A stretch of 64,000 nt of DNA from Candidatus Rifleibacteriota bacterium (GCA_015233155.1 JADFYG010000002.1:110734-174733); one strand, 5' to 3'; positions 14,798 through 23,744 are shown, numbered from the stretch's first letter. Translations and numbers: made by a program. The notes: a model not told the origin generated them from the sequence alone.

Positions 14798-14917
14798 ATA
14801 ATAACTACAAATACCTATGCGTGTGTTGCCGCCAGTCTCGGCATCAGGTATCCTTGTTTCGCGACTTTCTGCTTATTAATGGTCATTGATCACAGCAAAG
14901 AGGTGAATTACATCAAC

Positions 14918-16351
14918 ATGTTCAAATCCGTAAAAGAAGTGATAGGGTTCATCAAGAAAAACGAGATCATTGCTGTCGATCTCAAATGCTGTGATCTCTT
15001 CGGACGCTGGCGACATCTCACCATACCTGCAAGATGCGTCGACGAGTCGGTCCTGAATGAAGGCTTTGGCTTCGATGGCTCCAGCTATGGTTTTAAAAAG
15101 ATCGATAAATCGGACATGATTATTTTGCCGGATATCACCACGGGCTTTATCGATCCATTCTGTGAACATCCAACGCTTTCTTTCATCTGCAACATCCATT
15201 CCACTGATTTAGACGAGCCACGCTTTGAACAGGATCCGCGCTATGTGTGCGACAAGGCTGAAGATTATCTGAAAAAGCTTGGAATAGGCGAAACCATGCT
15301 GCTTGGGCCGGAATACGAATTTTATCTTTTTGATAACGTGTCGTTCGAAGATCGCATGGAAAAAAGCGGTTTTTCCATCAATTCCCACGCCGCTAACTGG
15401 AATACCGGAAACATGGAACAGAATAATTGTGGCTATCAGATGCCACTCAAAGGCGGATATCACGGGGGCCGCCCGGAGGACCGCCATGCCGACTACCGGA
15501 CTCGCCTGACCGAGATTTTGTTCAAAATGGGCATCGGAGTCAAATATCATCATCATGAAGTCGGCGGACCAGGGCAACTGGAAATCGAGACTGAATTCGA
15601 CACTCCTCGCCGCATGGCCGATAAGACCTTGGCAATAAAATATGCAACGAAGAATCTAGCTATTCGCGACGGACTGACAGCGACATTCATGCCCAAACCC
15701 ATGTTCGGCGCCCCCGGGAGTGGCTTTCACGTGCATTTCAAGCTCCTGGATAAAAAGCGAAATGCATTTGCCGATCCGACTGGGTATGCCGGGATGAGCA
15801 AGACGGCTATTCACTTTATAACGGGGATGCTGGTTCATGCGCGTGCCCTGTCCGCATTCGCAAACCCTTCGACGAACTCTTACAAACGCCTGGTGCCTGG
15901 ATACGAAGCTCCCGTCTCGATAGTTTTTGCCGAATCGAACCGCTCGGCAGCAATTCGCATTCCCGGCTATGTTAAAAATGCCGAAGACAAACGTTTCGAA
16001 TATCGCGCAGGCGATGCGACCGCCAACCCATACCTGATGTTTGCATCCATGATAATGGCAGGAATCGATGGGGTAAAACGCGAGCTTGATCCGAAACAAG
16101 AGCGTGTGGGCCCTATCGATGGCAATTTATACGAACTGCCGGAGAGCGAGCGAAAAAAGATCGGTATACTGCCGACATCACTGTTTGAAGCGTTGGATGC
16201 GCTTCATGCCGATCACCAGTTCCTGCTTGAGGGTGGCGTTTTCACTAAACATCTGATCGAAACCTGGATCCATCGCAAACGCGAAGAAGAAGGATTGCCT
16301 GTACATTTGCGCCCGCATCAATATGAATTTATACTATCTTATAACTGTTGA
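14918..16351 (+). CDS. glnA: Glutamine synthetase type I
   Basis: GS motifs TFMPKPMFGAPGSGFHVHF, NSYKRLVPGYEAP, SNRSAAIRIP. The start was chosen at MFKSVKEV. Confidence 0.9.
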   Translation: MFKSVKEVIGFIKKNEIIAVDLKCCDLFGRWRHLTIPARCVDESVLNEGFGFDGSSYGFKKIDKSDMIILPDITTGFIDPFCEHPTLSFICNIHSTDLDEPRFEQDPRYVCDKAEDYLKKLGIGETMLLGPEYEFYLFDNVSFEDRMEKSGFSINSHAANWNTGNMEQNNCGYQMPLKGGYHGGRPEDRHADYRTRLTEILFKMGIGVKYHHHEVGGPGQLEIETEFDTPRRMADKTLAIKYATKNLAIRDGLTATFMPKPMFGAPGSGFHVHFKLLDKKRNAFADPTGYAGMSKTAIHFITGMLVHARALSAFANPSTNSYKRLVPGYEAPVSIVFAESNRSAAIRIPGYVKNAEDKRFEYRAGDATANPYLMFASMIMAGIDGVKRELDPKQERVGPIDGNLYELPESERKKIGILPTSLFEALDALHADHQFLLEGGVFTKHLIETWIHRKREEEGLPVHLRPHQYEFILSYNC

Positions 16352-16411
16352 GGACGATGCGATGTATAATCGGCGGATGAAAGTCATGCAATGTCTTAGA
16401 GTCTTCCTGCT

Positions 16412-17542
16412 ATGATAGTCGGCGACGTAATAGTTCGCGGAGCTGGTGGTGGTAAGCCGATTAAGGAATGGCGGGAAAATGGTCTTGTTACAGCAGCCAC
16501 GGGCTGGGGTGAAATCGGATCCGCAAGAATTGCCGATGTTTTTGTCACTCACGATTCGAATGGCTCCATTCTCTCGATGAAAACCTCGAGAGGTCACACT
16601 CTCCGTTGTAGTCCTGAGCAGCTTTGTTTTTGTAAATTCGATCCCATGAGCCGGCTGTATTATCTGTACTTGATGGAACGCTCTACTATGGGGTTTCGCG
16701 TAGGAATGAGCCAGGATTTGTTGCGCGATGTTTTTGCGCTGCAAAGCACGAAACTCGTTGAAAATGATGCTTCTGAGATAGTTGATCGAATCTGGATCAT
16801 AGAAGGAACCGAAAGTCTCCCGAAAGCTGTTTTCCTGGCGCGTTATGCGTCATGCAAATATGGGTTGCCCGATGTCCCGTTCACAGGGCAGCATGCGACA
16901 GCCGAATTACCGGACGAACTTTTGCGCGAATTATTCAACCGCATTGACACCCCGTCACGTGCGCATCAGTTGCTGCTGGACTCGCTGATGTTTGAAGAAT
17001 ATCCACATATTACCGTAAAACTGAATAAAAATGCGCCCACGGCAAGCAATGCTGTTCAATTCATTGTTTTCGGTGCAGCCGAAAAAGCTGGTAATTGTCC
17101 GGGTTATGCTCATCTGATACGAATCGACTCAGCCATCGAACTGAATCGTGGTGAGCATAAAGCCTTCAAGCGACGGATGAACAATCGCGGTCTATGGCAT
17201 CTGGAAGTCGCACGCGAAGAATTTGAAGAAGCACAACTTTTTGTCAAGACCCTCGCAGCCCTGGATAATCTCGAAATCATTAAAAAAATTCAGTTAACCA
17301 AGAAAGCTCCCTTCTACATTCTCCCCGCGTCTCACGTGAAGCTTGGCATGACCGTGTCTGTCGCTGGCGGACGCAGCATAGAGGAGGACACAGTGACAAG
17401 TATCACCGTTGAATCCTGGGATAATCCTCTATACGATCTTAAGACTGAGGGAATACATAATTACATCGCTGGCGACTGGGTCGTTATGTCCTACTCCGGG
17501 CAGATCTCAACTGCTCCATCACTAAAGCGGGATGTCGTGTGA
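16412..17542 (+). CDS. Free-standing degenerate intein-like (Hint domain plus central endonuclease-like region) protein
   Basis: The N-terminus MIVGDVIVRG resembles intein block A (C-L-x-G-D-T-L-I) with Cys1 replaced by the initiator Met. The C-terminus LYDLKTEGIHNYIAGDWVVMS closely matches intein block F/G (vYDLtVeG.HNFiAnGilVHN), with the terminal HN replaced by MS. The ORF ends in an ATGA overlap with the pcrA start. Confidence 0.6.
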   Translation: MIVGDVIVRGAGGGKPIKEWRENGLVTAATGWGEIGSARIADVFVTHDSNGSILSMKTSRGHTLRCSPEQLCFCKFDPMSRLYYLYLMERSTMGFRVGMSQDLLRDVFALQSTKLVENDASEIVDRIWIIEGTESLPKAVFLARYASCKYGLPDVPFTGQHATAELPDELLRELFNRIDTPSRAHQLLLDSLMFEEYPHITVKLNKNAPTASNAVQFIVFGAAEKAGNCPGYAHLIRIDSAIELNRGEHKAFKRRMNNRGLWHLEVAREEFEEAQLFVKTLAALDNLEIIKKIQLTKKAPFYILPASHVKLGMTVSVAGGRSIEEDTVTSITVESWDNPLYDLKTEGIHNYIAGDWVVMSYSGQISTAPSLKRDVV

Positions 17543-19842
17543 TTGCGTCCGCCCCCCGATCTTCCGTCGTTCAGGCTGTTGCAACACTTAACCCGCGTCA
17601 GCGAGAAGCCGTCGAAATCCTTTCCGGGCCATTGCTTATCGTCGCAGGCGCCGGTTCGGGGAAAACCAAGACACTGACTATTCGGGTCGCGCATCTCATC
17701 GAGCAGGGAGCATCGGCGAACTCTATTCTTGGCGTGACATTTACCAATAAAGCTGCTCGCGAGATGCGTGAGCGTGTAGAAATGCTGATGCCAGGCGTCG
17801 GTTCAGCGATAACTTTGACGACATTTCATTCTTTCTGTGCCATGACATTGCGTAGATGGTGCAATCACCTCGGATACCCTCATGAATTCACCATCTACGA
17901 TGCTGATGATCAAGAACGTCTTATGAAACAGGTCATAGCGGAGCTGGATATCGATGGAAAGAAATTCTCCCCATCATTTCTTCTCAACTGCATTTCGATT
18001 GCAAAAAATGATTTGATTTCACCGACTGATTACCAACCGCCCGGCAAGGAAAAGGAGCTGATCAAATCAGTCTACGAAACATATCAGAAAAATATTTTCG
18101 CGGCTGGTGCAATGGATTTCGATGATCTGCTTTTTATGACATGGCGTTTGCTTTCAGAAAATCTGGATTTGCTTGAAAATATGCAACGCCGTTACAAACA
18201 TTTTTTTGTTGACGAATATCAGGACACCAATTTTGCACAGTATAAACTGATCTCCCTGCTTTCGCGTCAAAGCGGGAACCTCTGCGTGGTCGGAGACGAA
18301 GACCAGTCAATTTATGGTTGGCGTGGAGCAAGCATTCGGAACATCATCGAGTTTGAAAAAGATTTTCCTGGCGCTCGTGTTGTCGTACTTGACCAGAATT
18401 ATAGATCCACTCAACGTATTCTCGATGCGGCAAGCAGCGTCATAGCAAAAAATTCCGGCCCCAGAAAAAAACAACTTTGGAGTGAAATGAAGGGTGGCGC
18501 CCCGATAACTTTTATCTATGCTGATGATGATCGTGGAGAAGCAGATAGGGTGTCGAACGAAATAGAACGTCTCCATGTCGACGAACAACTTCCCCTCGGC
18601 AGTATGGCCGTGTTGTTTCGCATGAACAGCCAATCCCGTGCAATAGAGCAAGCTTTAGTGCGAAAACAGATTCCATATGAAATGACTGGTGGCACAAAAT
18701 TTTTTGGGCGAAAAGAGGTAAAAGATGTGCTCGCCTACCTGCGTGTCCTGGTAAATCCGCGCGATCACATCTCTCTGCGTCGCATTATCAATGTCCCGAC
18801 ACGTGGAATCGGCGATACTACGGTATCTCGTCTGACCGAAGAAGGCCCCCTCTGGGAAGCCTTGGCATCCCGCGCCACGGGACAAAAACCTGGAAAGCTG
18901 GCTCCATTCTATCGACTCATGCTTGATTTACGCGAACTTGCTGGAGAGGGTGGCATATTCGCCGTTGCCCAGTCCGTAATTGATCGCACTGAATATTTGC
19001 ACTTCCTGCGTCAGACAGACGAGGAAAAAGCGGAGGAACGTATATCCAACGTCGACAGTCTTCTCTCCGACATGAGGCTCCAGGAAGAAACAAATCCGGA
19101 GATTACACTTGCCGGTTATCTGGAGCAAGCCGCTCTCCACGCCGAAGCTGACGATCTCGATGAACGCGTTGAACGCGTACATCTGCTGACAATGCACAAC
19201 GCCAAAGGACTGGAATTCCCGAACGTGTTCATCATGGGCCTTGAAGAGGGAGTATTTCCTCATCACTCCTCGAAGGACGAGCCCGAAAAACTCGAAGAGG
19301 AGCGGCGTCTCGCATACGTTGGCATGACACGTGCTATGAAAAGGCTTTATCTATCGGCCGCACGTAGACGCATGATATTTGGTCAATGGGGATTTAATCC
19401 AATTTCCAGATTTATTCACGAGGTCCCACGAGATTTGTTCGACAGGGAAAAGCCTCCAATGCCGCTGTCCAACAATTTTAATCGAACAGCTCCTTCCTGC
19501 GGAGATTCGTCATCTCCTCGATCATTACAGGGATTTAACGGAAACGCCGTTGCCTTTTCGGCAAAATCAACAGAGTCATTAAAAGAGAAACCATACGCCG
19601 GTTTATTTTCGGGACCATCGAGACAATCGGTTACGGCTGAAGTGGTTCAAAATGGGATCCAGGGAACAATGGCAAATATTCATGTCGGCGTGAAGGTCTT
19701 TCACGTTATTTTTGGACCAGGCAGAGTGATAGCAGTGGATGGCGCATCACTGGCTGATTTTAGAGTCCATATCGAATTTTCTAAAGTCGGAAAGAAGACA
19801 TTACTCTTGCAGTATGCTCAGCTTCGGGTTATAAATATCTAA
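17539..19842 (+). CDS. pcrA: ATP-dependent DNA helicase PcrA/UvrD
   Basis: N-terminal LNPRQREAVEILSGPLLIVAGAGSGKTKTLTIRVAHLI (Walker A), then DEYQDTN, VGDEDQSIYGWRGA, and the C-terminal LAYVGMTRAM. Confidence 0.9.
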   Translation: MIASAPRSSVVQAVATLNPRQREAVEILSGPLLIVAGAGSGKTKTLTIRVAHLIEQGASANSILGVTFTNKAAREMRERVEMLMPGVGSAITLTTFHSFCAMTLRRWCNHLGYPHEFTIYDADDQERLMKQVIAELDIDGKKFSPSFLLNCISIAKNDLISPTDYQPPGKEKELIKSVYETYQKNIFAAGAMDFDDLLFMTWRLLSENLDLLENMQRRYKHFFVDEYQDTNFAQYKLISLLSRQSGNLCVVGDEDQSIYGWRGASIRNIIEFEKDFPGARVVVLDQNYRSTQRILDAASSVIAKNSGPRKKQLWSEMKGGAPITFIYADDDRGEADRVSNEIERLHVDEQLPLGSMAVLFRMNSQSRAIEQALVRKQIPYEMTGGTKFFGRKEVKDVLAYLRVLVNPRDHISLRRIINVPTRGIGDTTVSRLTEEGPLWEALASRATGQKPGKLAPFYRLMLDLRELAGEGGIFAVAQSVIDRTEYLHFLRQTDEEKAEERISNVDSLLSDMRLQEETNPEITLAGYLEQAALHAEADDLDERVERVHLLTMHNAKGLEFPNVFIMGLEEGVFPHHSSKDEPEKLEEERRLAYVGMTRAMKRLYLSAARRRMIFGQWGFNPISRFIHEVPRDLFDREKPPMPLSNNFNRTAPSCGDSSSPRSLQGFNGNAVAFSAKSTESLKEKPYAGLFSGPSRQSVTAEVVQNGIQGTMANIHVGVKVFHVIFGPGRVIAVDGASLADFRVHIEFSKVGKKTLLLQYAQLRVINI

Positions 19843-19864: not shown

Positions 19865-20323
19865 ATGTTCAGGTTTTTGCGGTTCTTGTGGAAGATTTTC
19901 GTTCTTGCCAGCGCTTTTGGTATTGGATATATCATTGGTCGCGAACATAGCTTCGAGGAAGATGAAGAGTGGGAAAACGAAGAAGCTGAGAACGATAAGA
20001 AGGATGAGAAGAATAAAGAGGCTACCAGCCCCACCCCATCTGCGGCTTCTGTTGTAACTGGGGCAGAAAAGCCATTTACCTTCGAGTATACTGATCCTAA
20101 GGCCACCCACGTTGCTGTAGTGGGCGATTTTAATGACTGGAACAAAGACAAGAGCTCCATGACGTTGGAAAATGGCGTTTGGAAGCTGACTGTTAATCTC
20201 AAGCCCGGTCGGCATGAGTACAAGTTGGTAATCAATCACACCGACTGGATCACAGATCCGAAATGCAGTGAAACCGTTGCTGACAAGGTCGGCGGCCGAT
20301 CATCACTGGTCGAGATCCACTGA
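19865..20323 (+). CDS. Membrane-anchored protein with AMPK-beta/CBM48 glycogen-binding domain
   Basis: N-terminal TM helix, acidic/Lys-rich linker, then FEYTDPKATHVAVVGDFNDWNKD…GRHEYKLVINHTDWITDP, which matches the CBM48/AMPK1_CBM signature. Confidence 0.7.
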   Translation: MFRFLRFLWKIFVLASAFGIGYIIGREHSFEEDEEWENEEAENDKKDEKNKEATSPTPSAASVVTGAEKPFTFEYTDPKATHVAVVGDFNDWNKDKSSMTLENGVWKLTVNLKPGRHEYKLVINHTDWITDPKCSETVADKVGGRSSLVEIH

Positions 20324-20483: not shown

Positions 20484-23400
20484 TTGGTTAAACGAATCTA
20501 TCTTGAAGAAATAATTGAACGGGAGCTTTTGAAAAGCTTTCTGGCACGAATGCGTCTGTTTACGGGGCTGACTGTCGTGCCGTTCAACGACCGAGGCGAA
20601 GCCATATTTGGTGATCCTGTCGAATTGTTCGGCGCAAAAGATGAAATTCTCGATCTCGAGCGACTTGCCGGACGCGATCTCATAACACGAACCGATGGTG
20701 CGCTGATTCGTGTTGTCAGATTAAGCTGGCGCGGTAATCTATACGGCATAGTACTTTTGGGACCCTATTTTCCTGCTGAGGCAACCAAACCCGGATCAGA
20801 AATAGTTTCATCACAAATAATGTGTAGTAAAGCTGACGTTGTGCAAAACATAGAAGCCCCGACAGAGCCAACTTCTCATGCAACCAAATCACACGGGCGC
20901 GAGGAAAAAAAATCTCGTCGCGAAAACAAAATCGGTCTTCACTCAAAAATTGCCGCTTCTGCTGATGTTGCAGATAAAATTCGTCTTACAAATGAACAGA
21001 TACTTGCCGCTGCAGAGTTGATCGAACAGTTTTTCTCACAACAAGTAGAGATTACCGGGGAACGAGAAGCACTGCGCCGTAAGGAGAAAATTCTCTCGGT
21101 GCTCGAAGAAGCGTCAGACATTATGAATTCCAAGCTGGAATTCAACCGCCTCCTGGATTTTCTGATGGATATAGCCATCGACATAACCGGAGCCACATGC
21201 GGAGCATTACTTCTGAAAAAAGAAAGTAAGCGATATCTCGAAGTTGCCGTTGCTCGGGGCAAATACCCCCAGGAAGTTAAAAAAATTCGCGTTCCTATTG
21301 GCCAGGGCATTACTGGCTGGGTTGCTCGTAATCATGAATCACTCATTGTACCCAATGTTCTTCTTGAGCCACGATACATTGAAACCCCGGAAACAATCTA
21401 CTCTGAAATGGCGGTTCCATTGCTTGTCGGGGAAAAACTTATCGGAGTTATCGCCGTCGATTCGTCGGAAATAAATGCGTTTTCCAAGGAAGACTGTGCC
21501 ACTCTCGGAACTCTGGCGTCCATGGTGACCAAGGTTCTTGAGAATGCCCGCTTACTTGCAGTTTCAAATCAGAAGGTTCGGGAAATAACGCGTCTGTTTT
21601 CAATTTCAGAACGTCTGCTGGATGGCAATGGCGCACCCGCTCTAATTCCTGCGGTATTAGTCGATGTCGCTGAAGCACTCAGTTGCAAAGGCATCTCACT
21701 CATGGCATATGACAGTGATCGCGACGATCTTTCGATGATGGCGACCCATGGATTATCAGAAGAGGTCAGGGGACTGCGCATTCCGATGGGGAAAGGCATT
21801 CACGGATGGGTTGCACAACAGCGGAAACCACTGTTGATACAGGATACCACTTCGGAAGCCTCATTCGTCAGATATTCTCTTCTTGATCAGTTTTCTCGTT
21901 CTTCGCTGACGGTTCCCCTGCTTGCCGGCGACCATTTAATTGGAGTGTTATCCGCCTATCAGAAGTCCGAGGAAGCCTCTTTCCAGGAAGATGATGAACG
22001 GCTGCTCACAGCTATCGGTCGCATTTTGACGGTACATTTCGAAAATCGCCGACTGTTCGACGATTCACGACGGAAACTTGATTACCTGACCACATTATAT
22101 CAGGTCAGTTCGTCGGTTTCCCGCACTTTGAATCTTGCAAAGCTTTTTGGAACAATTCTCCAGCAGGTCCAGGATGTAATGGACGTGGAAAATTGTTCAC
22201 TTATGGCGTATGACTCAGTAAAAAATCATCTATCTCTTGATGCTGCCATAGGAGTTCCGAAAAAACTTGTAGGAATGGTCAATGTTCCGATGGGGGAAGG
22301 GATTTCCGGCTGGGTTGCCAAGATGCGTCAACCGGTGCTTATCAAGGATATAGCCAAAGATGAGCGATTCATCCACCATCCGGGTCGCATGGATTATAAG
22401 ACACGTTCGGCCCTTTCTGTTCCAATTATTCACAACAGAAATCTTCTTGGTGTAATCAACGTCAACAATAAACGTTCAGGTTGTATCTTTGACGACGATG
22501 ATCTTAATCTGCTGATCGGGATTTCCGGCCAGATCGCTCAGGCAATTGCAAACGCCAACCTGTATGAACGGACAGAGCAGCAAGTTGCTGAACTGAGCTT
22601 GATCCAGGAACTGGGTAAGGCGATCAATTCATCGCTCGACCTCGATTCAGTGTTGACTTACTTTATAGACATGACATCCCGTATCACTGATGCTGACAGA
22701 TCGACACTGATGTTATTCGATGATGAAAAACAAGAATTATATGTCCAGGCTTTCCGTGGATTCAAAGAAGCCGAGATTCGTGTAGTACGTTTTAAAATTG
22801 GCGAAGGCATTGCCGGACAGGCTGCTCAGACTCGTCGACCTATACGGGTTATAAACACACACGAAGATCCCCTCTATACGCAACTCGGAGTGCTTAATTC
22901 CGCGCAACCACTCACAATGATTTCCGCTCCACTGGTGAATCGCGACAAACTCGTTGGAGTCATAAACTGTGAACGTGAACTCGGGCGCAAGGGACCATTC
23001 TTGCCAGAGAACCTGGACCTGCTCGACACACTTTCCTCGCAAGCCTCAGTGGCAATAGAAAATGCGCGCCTATATCATAATCTATTGAACGTCTACCTCG
23101 AAACTATCCGCGCTCTTGCGGCCGCAATTGATGCAAAGGACAGCTATACGAGCGGCCATTCACGCCGCGTTACAGAGCTTTCTGTCGCGCTTGCACAAGC
23201 AATGGGATTGCATCGCGAAGAAGTCGATACGATCCGACATGCCGCCTTACTGCATGATGTTGGCAAGATCGGTATAAGTGAACGCATTCTCCTCAAACCG
23301 GGTCGCTTGACGGATGATGAATTCGAAACGATCAAATCTCATCCACACATTGGTGCCGGCATTCTTAATTCTATTGAGTTTCTGAAAAATGTTTGTTCAA

Positions 23401-23744
23401 TAATTGAACATCACCATGAAAGATTTGATGGCCGCGGGTATCCTTCCGGGTTGAAAGCTGCTGAAATTCCGCTCGGGGCAAGAATAATAATGGTTGCTGA
23501 CTCCTTCGACGCAATCACTTCCAGTCGCCCGTATCGCAAACCGCTGACTTTTGCTGAAGCAACTGAGGAAATTCGCCGATGTGGCGGGACTCAATTCGAC
23601 CCGAAAGTTGTTGAAGCATTCGTCGCTTTGCGGAATAATGTTTTCTGTCCAATCTGGCTGAAAAAAGAAGCACTTGAACCTGAAACAGAGAATGAATCTC
23701 AACTTACAGCGGAAATACAATCTTTTCCCGGCCTGCGTATTTGA
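20484..23744 (+). CDS. Multi-GAF-domain HD-GYP phosphodiesterase
   Basis: 1086 aa with at least four GAF-like units (repeating …GIxGWVA… motifs). The C-terminal HD-GYP domain has LHDVGKIGI and HHERFDGRGYP. Confidence 0.85.
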   Translation: MVKRIYLEEIIERELLKSFLARMRLFTGLTVVPFNDRGEAIFGDPVELFGAKDEILDLERLAGRDLITRTDGALIRVVRLSWRGNLYGIVLLGPYFPAEATKPGSEIVSSQIMCSKADVVQNIEAPTEPTSHATKSHGREEKKSRRENKIGLHSKIAASADVADKIRLTNEQILAAAELIEQFFSQQVEITGEREALRRKEKILSVLEEASDIMNSKLEFNRLLDFLMDIAIDITGATCGALLLKKESKRYLEVAVARGKYPQEVKKIRVPIGQGITGWVARNHESLIVPNVLLEPRYIETPETIYSEMAVPLLVGEKLIGVIAVDSSEINAFSKEDCATLGTLASMVTKVLENARLLAVSNQKVREITRLFSISERLLDGNGAPALIPAVLVDVAEALSCKGISLMAYDSDRDDLSMMATHGLSEEVRGLRIPMGKGIHGWVAQQRKPLLIQDTTSEASFVRYSLLDQFSRSSLTVPLLAGDHLIGVLSAYQKSEEASFQEDDERLLTAIGRILTVHFENRRLFDDSRRKLDYLTTLYQVSSSVSRTLNLAKLFGTILQQVQDVMDVENCSLMAYDSVKNHLSLDAAIGVPKKLVGMVNVPMGEGISGWVAKMRQPVLIKDIAKDERFIHHPGRMDYKTRSALSVPIIHNRNLLGVINVNNKRSGCIFDDDDLNLLIGISGQIAQAIANANLYERTEQQVAELSLIQELGKAINSSLDLDSVLTYFIDMTSRITDADRSTLMLFDDEKQELYVQAFRGFKEAEIRVVRFKIGEGIAGQAAQTRRPIRVINTHEDPLYTQLGVLNSAQPLTMISAPLVNRDKLVGVINCERELGRKGPFLPENLDLLDTLSSQASVAIENARLYHNLLNVYLETIRALAAAIDAKDSYTSGHSRRVTELSVALAQAMGLHREEVDTIRHAALLHDVGKIGISERILLKPGRLTDDEFETIKSHPHIGAGILNSIEFLKNVCSIIEHHHERFDGRGYPSGLKAAEIPLGARIIMVADSFDAITSSRPYRKPLTFAEATEEIRRCGGTQFDPKVVEAFVALRNNVFCPIWLKKEALEPETENESQLTAEIQSFPGLRI

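Follow-up and report, generated by a model that had tools for sequence, protein, structure and literature searches.

A stand-alone descendant of PcrA motif-III inteins without splicing residues adjoins an intein-free pcrA in Riflebacteria

Inteins are usually regarded as selfish elements that are at best conditionally regulatory. Why, then, would an intein-like sequence be kept as a gene of its own? This question is raised by a 64,000-nucleotide (nt) stretch of DNA from Candidatus Rifleibacteriota bacterium (GCA_015233155.1 JADFYG010000002.1:110734-174733; hereafter the window), in which an open reading frame (ORF) of 376 amino acids (aa) on the plus strand (16412-17542) sits between glnA (14879-16351) and a UvrD-family helicase gene (17539-19842). 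The original prediction, made from the sequence alone, described a free-standing, degenerate intein-like ORF coupled to pcrA and offered two explanations, a domesticated Hint-domain protein or the relic of an intein. We find it probable, with some reservation, that the ORF encodes an exapted (domesticated) intein that does not splice, is probably dead as a nuclease and is co-expressed with PcrA, its job as a partner or regulator of the helicase being a guess.

The ORF product had 100% identity with a protein annotated as hypothetical in a Candidatus Riflebacteria metagenome-assembled genome (MAG) (P0001). It starts with MIVGDVIVRG and contains the internal motifs YYLYLMERSTMGFRVG and FLARYASCKYG as well as LYDLKTEGIHNYIAGDWVVMS. 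As had been predicted, it is not embedded in a host protein: an in-frame TAG precedes the ATG by 15 nt, so that no N-extein is possible, the ORF has its own stop codon, and pcrA has its own start, usually in another frame when related loci are considered. The sole start codon 5' of the conserved LNPRQ/Walker A region of pcrA is a GTG at 17539, which overlaps the TGA stop of the ORF (17540-17542). The proposed coupling to a complete pcrA with its own N-terminus was thus borne out, but the overlap is GTGA and not ATGA. The helicase is complete with 767 aa, and its top curated family was TIGR01073 (pcrA), matched over positions 3-724/725 with 768 bits, a score under the 911-bit equivalog cut-off of that model. 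It also has both UvrD domains, N- and C-terminal, and matches a Tudor domain weakly, slightly under the Pfam threshold. Its motif III is uninterrupted (GDEDQSIYGWRGA, 18292-18315), leaving the intein site empty (GDEDQ/SIY, the slash marking the insertion point). No terminator-like site was found between the ORF and pcrA in the window. We observed a sigma-70-like promoter match inside the ORF (17241-17269; TTGTCA, a 17-nt spacer and GATAAT; 10/12 consensus positions), which lies about 270 nt 5' of the pcrA start and, judged by consensus match alone, could drive pcrA separately from the ORF.

The ancestry of the ORF was then sought in sequence and structure comparisons. The Pfam model Intein_splicing matched the C-terminal part of the product only, with an E-value of 1.4e-4 and 22 bits, under the gathering score, and phmmer against PDB sequences gave marginal matches alone, to the intein C-terminus. 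Searches of NCBIfam, PADLOC and PHROGs returned 0 matches. In contrast to the weak Pfam match, an exhaustive HMMER scan of 1.84 billion representatives gave strong ones, with 446 proteins at E <= 1e-3 and best E-values to 6e-50. Most of those among the matches listed were bona fide inteins within helicases that Pfam identifies as UvrD/PcrA. Beyond the close family, the matches span ORF residues ~5-359 and lie at positions ~260-615 of helicases of 1000-1100 aa, with 24-32% identity over the whole length, i.e. both Hint lobes and everything between them. These inserts are flanked by VVGDxDQ/C on one side and VHN/[SC]IYxWRGA on the other, the pattern of class-1 inteins at helicase motif III. Since the closest relatives are inteins of PcrA itself, the place of the ORF beside pcrA is meaningful. 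This motif-III intein family is in itself very large (446 representatives at 50% clustering; P0069-P0212 among the matches listed).

Structure prediction agreed with this assignment. An AlphaFold model built on a 32-sequence alignment had a predicted local distance difference test score (pLDDT) of 84 and a predicted template modelling score (pTM) of 0.82, and showed a Hint fold. Foldseek matched this model to VMA, DnaB and further intein/Hint structures, with E-values down to 3.5e-6, and to structures of bacterial intein-like (BIL) domains. Full-length homology and the predicted fold together show that the ORF descends from a PcrA motif-III intein. Of the defining properties of an intein, the Hint fold with homology to established inteins is the one that the ORF has kept, and all others are gone.

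The loss is clearest at the residues required for splicing. Family counts below are from 63 full-length members and intein percentages from 123 inteins. In the alignment with inteins, Met1 stands opposite Cys1, in agreement with the proposal that the initiator Met replaced it, and V-V-M359-S360 stands opposite V-V-H-N, so that the predicted loss of the terminal His-Asn was also confirmed. VVMS had been taken for the end of the protein; the motif is present, but the product runs on past it for 16 residues (YSGQISTAPSLKRDVV). The window junction thus reads M359-S360-Y361, without the pattern of His-Asn followed by a Cys, Ser or Thr nucleophile at +1. These replacements extend to the family. Position 1 was Met in 57 members, Val in 2 and unaligned in 4, and was never Cys, Ser or Thr; the penultimate residue was Met in 57/63 and never His; the terminal residue was Cys, Ser or Ala and never Asn. 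Block B reads S67-P-E-Q70 in the window, compared to T-x-x-H in inteins (His in 100%), and the position of its His is occupied by Gln in 38/63 members, the window copy included, and by His in 25/63. Moreover, pcrA is uninterrupted at motif III in the window and in every related locus whose sequence reaches that motif. Canonical splicing or cleavage is impossible, because there are no exteins, no Cys1 and no terminal His-Asn, and the block-B His is lost in the window copy. The idea that the C-terminal M-S-Y-S-G is a remnant of the C-extein sequence N-S-I-Y-S-W-R-G was dropped, the stretch being too short and gapped to judge.

Nested domains of inteins are usually of the LAGLIDADG or HNH type, and the middle of the ORF product had been suspected to be a decayed LAGLIDADG endonuclease. 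We could not support this identity. No Pfam LAGLIDADG match was obtained even at E <= 10, superposition of the model on LAGLIDADG inteins was poor overall (template modelling score 0.25, root-mean-square deviation above 20 A), and Foldseek with the nested domain alone gave no match to LAGLIDADG structures. In the model, the first part of the domain (residues 83-150) is arranged as beta-beta-alpha-beta-alpha, which is the core topology of GIY-YIG nucleases (PMC3384342). The Pfam GIY-YIG profile matched 5/28 related true inteins, all below threshold, the best with an E-value of 0.0086 over profile positions 2-69 of 78. With the domain alone, the top Foldseek match in the PDB was Slx1 (E 0.23), UvrC was also listed (E ~5), and several viral GIY-YIG proteins were found with probabilities of 0.97 and 0.93. 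Our interpretation, held with moderate confidence from these sequence and model comparisons, is a GIY-YIG-like domain followed by a further subdomain, an organization common to PcrA motif-III inteins. This indicates that the motif-III inteins of PcrA carry a GIY-YIG-like nested domain and not the usual LAGLIDADG or HNH type. Several results count against it: Pfam GIY-YIG gave 0 matches with the window protein itself, the nested-domain profile found nothing among PDB sequences at E <= 10, and hhalign of that profile with residues 1-103 of E. coli UvrC aligned the GIY strand alone, without significance. The assignment leans on sub-threshold sequence matches and modest fold scores. The domain-only AlphaFold model was reliable for its first ~115 residues only (pLDDT 68 overall). 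Structurally similar nested domains were also seen in two phage proteins, a DNA methyltransferase and a helicase (BFVD A0A8S5TZY8 and A0A8S5V111).

Does the nested domain still cut DNA? Residues conserved in the inteins are Y86, Y/F95, R104 (75%), R118 (93%), E122 (97%) and E143 (94%); over positions 86, 95, 104, 118 and 143, conservation spans 64-94%. In the stand-alone family, positions 104 and 118 are never Arg, position 95 is Phe in 60/63 and E143 is kept in 30/63. The window copy has Y86, F95, L104, N118 and A143 and therefore does not present the catalytic residues of a GIY-YIG nuclease, positions 86, 95, 104 and 143 having been matched to these residues by topology and hence by inference. 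DNA cleavage has most likely been lost, because both conserved Arg are gone family-wide and about half of the members, including the window copy, lack the Glu that putatively binds metal. On the other side, R96, D125 and H199, which are shared with inteins, are still invariant, and E122 and H234 are nearly so; a residual or altered active site is thus possible.

Loss of these activities was not accompanied by decay of the gene. A word-indexed search identified 65 clusters of 364-380 aa with 37-79% identity, and the named ones belong to Riflebacteria, Ozemobacteraceae or Rifleibacterium. A scan of GTDB species representatives, which tallied carriers of the gene, gave 49 loci, consisting of 48 stand-alone copies and 1 true intein (L058, Methylomirabilota, within a PcrA of 1102 aa). 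The ORF was intact in each of the ~49 species representatives found, neither pseudogenes nor empty sites were seen in ~47 loci, and the family alignment contains 48 invariant columns. Pairwise identities of the ORF and of the adjacent PcrA were strongly correlated (Pearson r = 0.89; 40 loci, 780 pairs), with means of 0.565 and 0.599, respectively. The ratio of nonsynonymous to synonymous substitution rates (dN/dS, Nei-Gojobori), restricted to pairs with unsaturated dS, was 0.019-0.125 for the ORF and 0.050-0.241 for PcrA, the ORF being at or below PcrA in most pairs. The composition of the ORF is native (GC content 0.484, compared to 0.473 for the window), and recent horizontal acquisition was rejected since it left no compositional signal. 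This signature is that of a vertically inherited functional host gene and not of a decaying relic or an actively homing element. "Degenerate" is thus a misleading label, since the protein is under strong purifying selection; of the two explanations first offered, domestication stands and the relic does not.

Selection has also shifted along the protein. By column entropy normalised within each group, the stand-alone clade was relatively relaxed, compared to the inteins, at block A (residues 1-25), in the R118-N-Q-E segment and in blocks F/G (341-360). Residues ~262-305 (WHLEVAREEFEEAQLFVKTLAALDNLEIIKKIQLTKKAPFYILP), a strand-helix-strand unit where the C-terminal Hint lobe joins, were far more constrained in the stand-alone clade than in the inteins. 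Such a pattern is expected of a protein that gave up splice chemistry and gained a new surface for interaction.

Some database records of the family call for comment. Four loci with a typical Riflebacteria arrangement and 45-50% identity (L031, L040, L048 and L049) come from MAGs that carry the names Methylomirabilis sp., Erysipelotrichia bacterium and Avigastranaerophilus sp.; these bins have probably been assigned to the wrong taxa. P0067 is a 358-aa gene call whose first ~216 residues match the Ozemobacter sibiricus member (P0016) before unrelated sequence follows; it probably reflects a frameshift or assembly error in a single record and not a natural variant. Eight stand-alone proteins of ~370 aa (P0023, P0029, P0031, P0033, P0054, P0056, P0060 and P0063) are named "DNA helicase II / PcrA" in JGI and one NCBI record. 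None of them has a helicase domain, and the name was presumably transferred from intein-containing helicases; NCBI labels most family members "hypothetical".

The link to pcrA was equally stable. Among the 47 loci whose sequence extends beyond the ORF, an intein-free pcrA starts within -17 to +17 nt of the ORF stop in ~45, and motif III of the linked pcrA is intact (GDEDQSIY or GDDDQSIY). The exceptions are L048, with a gap of ~200 nt, and L041, in which a spacer of ~1.9 kb (L041:4589-6488), possibly with an inserted gene, precedes pcrA. The upstream neighbours vary, with glnA in the window and PfkB, polysaccharide deacetylase, M20 peptidase or mnmA elsewhere. The downstream block of pcrA, a CBM48 protein and a GAF/HD-GYP gene was kept in the window as well as in the other four Riflebacteria loci with called genes that were read. 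The frame relation of ORF and pcrA varies, and in five loci of the Rifleibacterium type (L025, L028, L029, L030 and L032) both share one frame, with only the stop codon and one further codon between them and the junction about 3 nt after the stop. Readthrough of this stop would yield a fusion protein in these five loci; the frames differ in others. A conserved programmed frameshift or readthrough joining the ORF to PcrA was ruled out by the varying offsets and frames.

Taken together, these observations suggest the following history. The ancestor was a class-1 intein of the UvrD/PcrA motif-III family, with a nested endonuclease domain that we read as GIY-YIG-like. Among Riflebacteria it would have turned into its own gene directly 5' of an intein-free pcrA; splicing has been lost, DNA cleavage most likely so, and the protein is retained by strong purifying selection. 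Its product would be made from the operon of PcrA, in the window by translational coupling. Our best guess for its job is a non-catalytic partner or regulator that binds DNA and/or PcrA, for which the old DNA-recognition scaffold and the newly constrained surface 262-305 might be used. A more specific version, which we put forward tentatively, is that of an obligate accessory subunit or regulator of PcrA, co-expressed stoichiometrically, which might direct PcrA to certain DNA or sit at the former homing site in pcrA.

The evidence is not all on the side of this domesticated partner of PcrA. Free-standing homologues outside the main clade do not adjoin pcrA: P0181, P0182 and P0204 precede chemotaxis operons, P0171 lies by a radical-SAM gene and P0092 is near dnaG, rpoD and dnaE. 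The function therefore need not involve PcrA, and a domesticated protein could serve elsewhere, for example as a DNA-binding regulator, with its adjacency to pcrA a historical leftover, a fossil of its origin. We regard this as unlikely, albeit the most serious of the competing explanations, because the junction with pcrA stays within ~17 nt in ~45/47 loci despite reshuffled upstream genes, because the reading frames overlap by 4 nt in the window, and because an adjacency without function should break more often over a divergence that reaches down to 37% identity. An active free-standing homing endonuclease, in the manner of yeast WHO or phage Seg/Mob, would cleave pcrA alleles that are sensitive to it, and co-conversion with the adjacent resistant pcrA would let it spread. 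Its relatives are homing pcrA inteins, the ORF adjoins the same target, as WHO adjoins FBA1 (PMC7282813), and Y86, R96, E122, D125 and H199 are still conserved. However, the Arg and Glu residues conserved in the true inteins are lost, the ORF has diverged together with PcrA, with a dN/dS equal to or below that of an essential helicase, and it combines native composition with 0 pseudogenes or empty sites in ~47 loci. Selfish homing genes are typically patchy in distribution and prone to decay. An active endonuclease is thus quite improbable.

If the ORF were a pseudogene or decaying relic, left behind when an intein was excised from pcrA or frameshifted out of it, the loss of every splice-site residue and the weak Pfam match would be accounted for. 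This reading is hard to reconcile with intact ORFs of 364-380 aa in at least 63 protein clusters, dN/dS of 0.02-0.13, 48 invariant columns and a segment that is now more conserved than in inteins, and we consider it very improbable. Still less credible is an assembly or sequencing artefact, or a programmed frameshift or readthrough, that hides an element truly in frame with pcrA or glnA, to which only the five loci with both genes in one frame would lend some weight. A frameshift artefact would not produce the layout seen here, in which the ORF stands free in ~47 independent assemblies while frame relations vary and junctions range from -17 to +17 nt. In addition, a stop lies 15 nt 5' of the ATG, the N-terminus of PcrA is its own and its motif III is uninterrupted, and neither intein end has a nucleophile. 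With strong intein homology as well, neither of the two outcomes that the original prediction had named as refuting it was obtained. A Gabija-type pair of nuclease and UvrD helicase was also considered for defence and rejected, since PADLOC gave no match for the ORF and the GajB matches of the helicase reflect generic UvrD-family similarity.

The stand-alone homologues of other lineages are 22-33% identical to one another and to inteins, and crude distance comparisons did not separate a single from a multiple origin of the free-standing forms. P0182 (L008:4001-5029), P0204 (L010:4001-5062) and P0181 (L062:442-1491) are mutually 22-25% identical, and each lies directly 5' of a response regulator/HAMP-MCP/CheR/CheA cluster. 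This may be a second, independent conserved linkage of a domesticated copy, and it suggests that the motif-III intein family was recruited more than once. P0068 (L006:5001-6104) belongs to a deep branch of Riflebacteria, shares 33% identity with the window protein and likewise lies directly 5' of pcrA. It retains T-P-D-H at block B and a C-terminal Ser-Asn followed by 5 residues only (HSCKS), and may, judging from these residues, be an intermediate still able to cyclise Asn. P0171 (L061:4001-5074) ends in IFIHN directly before the stop codon, thus with His-Asn kept and nothing after it, has Gly for Cys1 behind a 15-aa leader, and is followed downstream by a radical-SAM/SPASM gene and by the T and H genes of glycine cleavage.

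The features of the locus, including the neighbouring genes, are listed in Table 1. The N-terminus of the CBM48/AMPK1_CBM protein appeared hydrophobic as judged by eye.

Table 1. Positions of the intein-derived ORF, its parts and its neighbours, counted from the first letter of the window
Feature	Position	Strand	Remark
Intein-derived free-standing ORF, 376 aa	16412..17542	+	Full-length homology to UvrD/PcrA motif-III inteins
In-frame TAG upstream of ATG	16397..16399	+	
N-terminal Hint lobe, residues 1-78	16412..16645	+	Met1 at intein Cys1 position; from model and alignment
Nested domain, first part	16658..16891	+	Y86 kept; Y95 to Phe, R104 to Leu, R118 to Asn, E143 to Ala
Nested domain, second part, residues 161-296	16892..17299	+	Helices and beta sheet; invariant P198-H199
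Segment of raised conservation, residues 262-305, WHLEVAREEFEEAQLFVKTLAALDNLEIIKKIQLTKKAPFYILP	17195..17326	+	Candidate new interaction surface
C-terminal Hint lobe, residues 297-360	17300..17491	+	Blocks F and G; V-V-M359-S360 for V-V-H-N
16-residue C-terminal tail (YSGQISTAPSLKRDVV)	17492..17539	+	Model confidence low; variable across family
GTGA overlap	17539..17542	+	pcrA start over ORF stop
pcrA, 767 aa	17539..19842	+	Complete, intein-free
pcrA motif III codons, GDEDQSIY	18292..18315	+	Empty insertion point Q/S between 18306 and 18307
Small CBM48/AMPK1_CBM protein	19865..20323	+	
Multi-GAF HD-GYP-type gene, large	20484-23744		In the window

In this bacterial phylum, a stand-alone intein derivative is thus maintained by selection no weaker than that acting on an essential helicase, beside the very gene that its relatives invade. 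The locus offers a natural experiment on how a mobile protein-splicing element becomes a host gene, and it provides a candidate for a new PcrA-associated factor and for a Hint scaffold that is stably folded without splicing chemistry. It also allows public annotation to be corrected, both the "PcrA helicase" of several JGI records and the "hypothetical" of most NCBI records. If the product were indeed an accessory subunit of PcrA, yeast HO would have its first bacterial counterpart, and an intein would for the first time have become a trans-acting partner of the protein that it once parasitised.

How does this gene compare with known systems? The UvrD/PcrA motif-III inteins (GDxDQ/SIYxWRGA) resemble it most, with both Hint lobes, the same nested GIY-YIG-like domain and the second subdomain. 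Compared to them, the ORF has no exteins, no Cys1 and no terminal His-Asn, the block-B His is often lost in its family, and the Arg and Glu of the nested domain are lost. Moreover, it is its own gene 5' of an uninterrupted pcrA, inherited vertically under purifying selection, whereas motif-III inteins are sporadic. BIL domains are short Hint modules that lie within larger proteins and have no nested endonuclease; their cleavage chemistry is kept. Like them, the ORF product is a bacterial Hint-fold protein that is not a canonical intein; unlike them, it is a whole intein homologue that stands alone and lacks the nucleophiles.

The closest precedent for its way of life is found in yeast. HO and WHO are stand-alone, non-splicing and intein-derived; WHO genes adjoin their target FBA1, and HO is domesticated (Coughlan et al. 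2020, PMC7282813). Similarly to the ORF, they are independent genes with Hint-like and nested endonuclease-type domains, without exteins and without splicing, and the position of WHO beside FBA1 parallels that of the ORF beside pcrA. In contrast, HO and WHO are eukaryotic active nucleases with LAGLIDADG domains and a zinc finger, while the ORF product comes from a bacterium, is GIY-YIG-like, lacks a zinc finger and probably no longer has its catalytic residues. WHO also builds clusters of genes and pseudogenes, of which the ORF family shows none. Our full-text literature searches, of incomplete coverage, found no report of a stand-alone or domesticated bacterial intein, and in the literature covered, HO was the sole whole intein described as domesticated. 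A bacterial parallel for the fate of the nested domain is WhiA/DUF199, a LAGLIDADG homing endonuclease that was domesticated as a regulator after loss of its catalytic residues (reviewed in PMC3384342). As in the ORF family, a homing-endonuclease scaffold was kept across a large bacterial clade while catalytic residues were lost, and in WhiA it was reused in a non-nucleolytic role. WhiA is of LAGLIDADG origin, gained a helix-turn-helix domain and has no Hint domain, whereas the ORF has kept the entire intein, Hint included.

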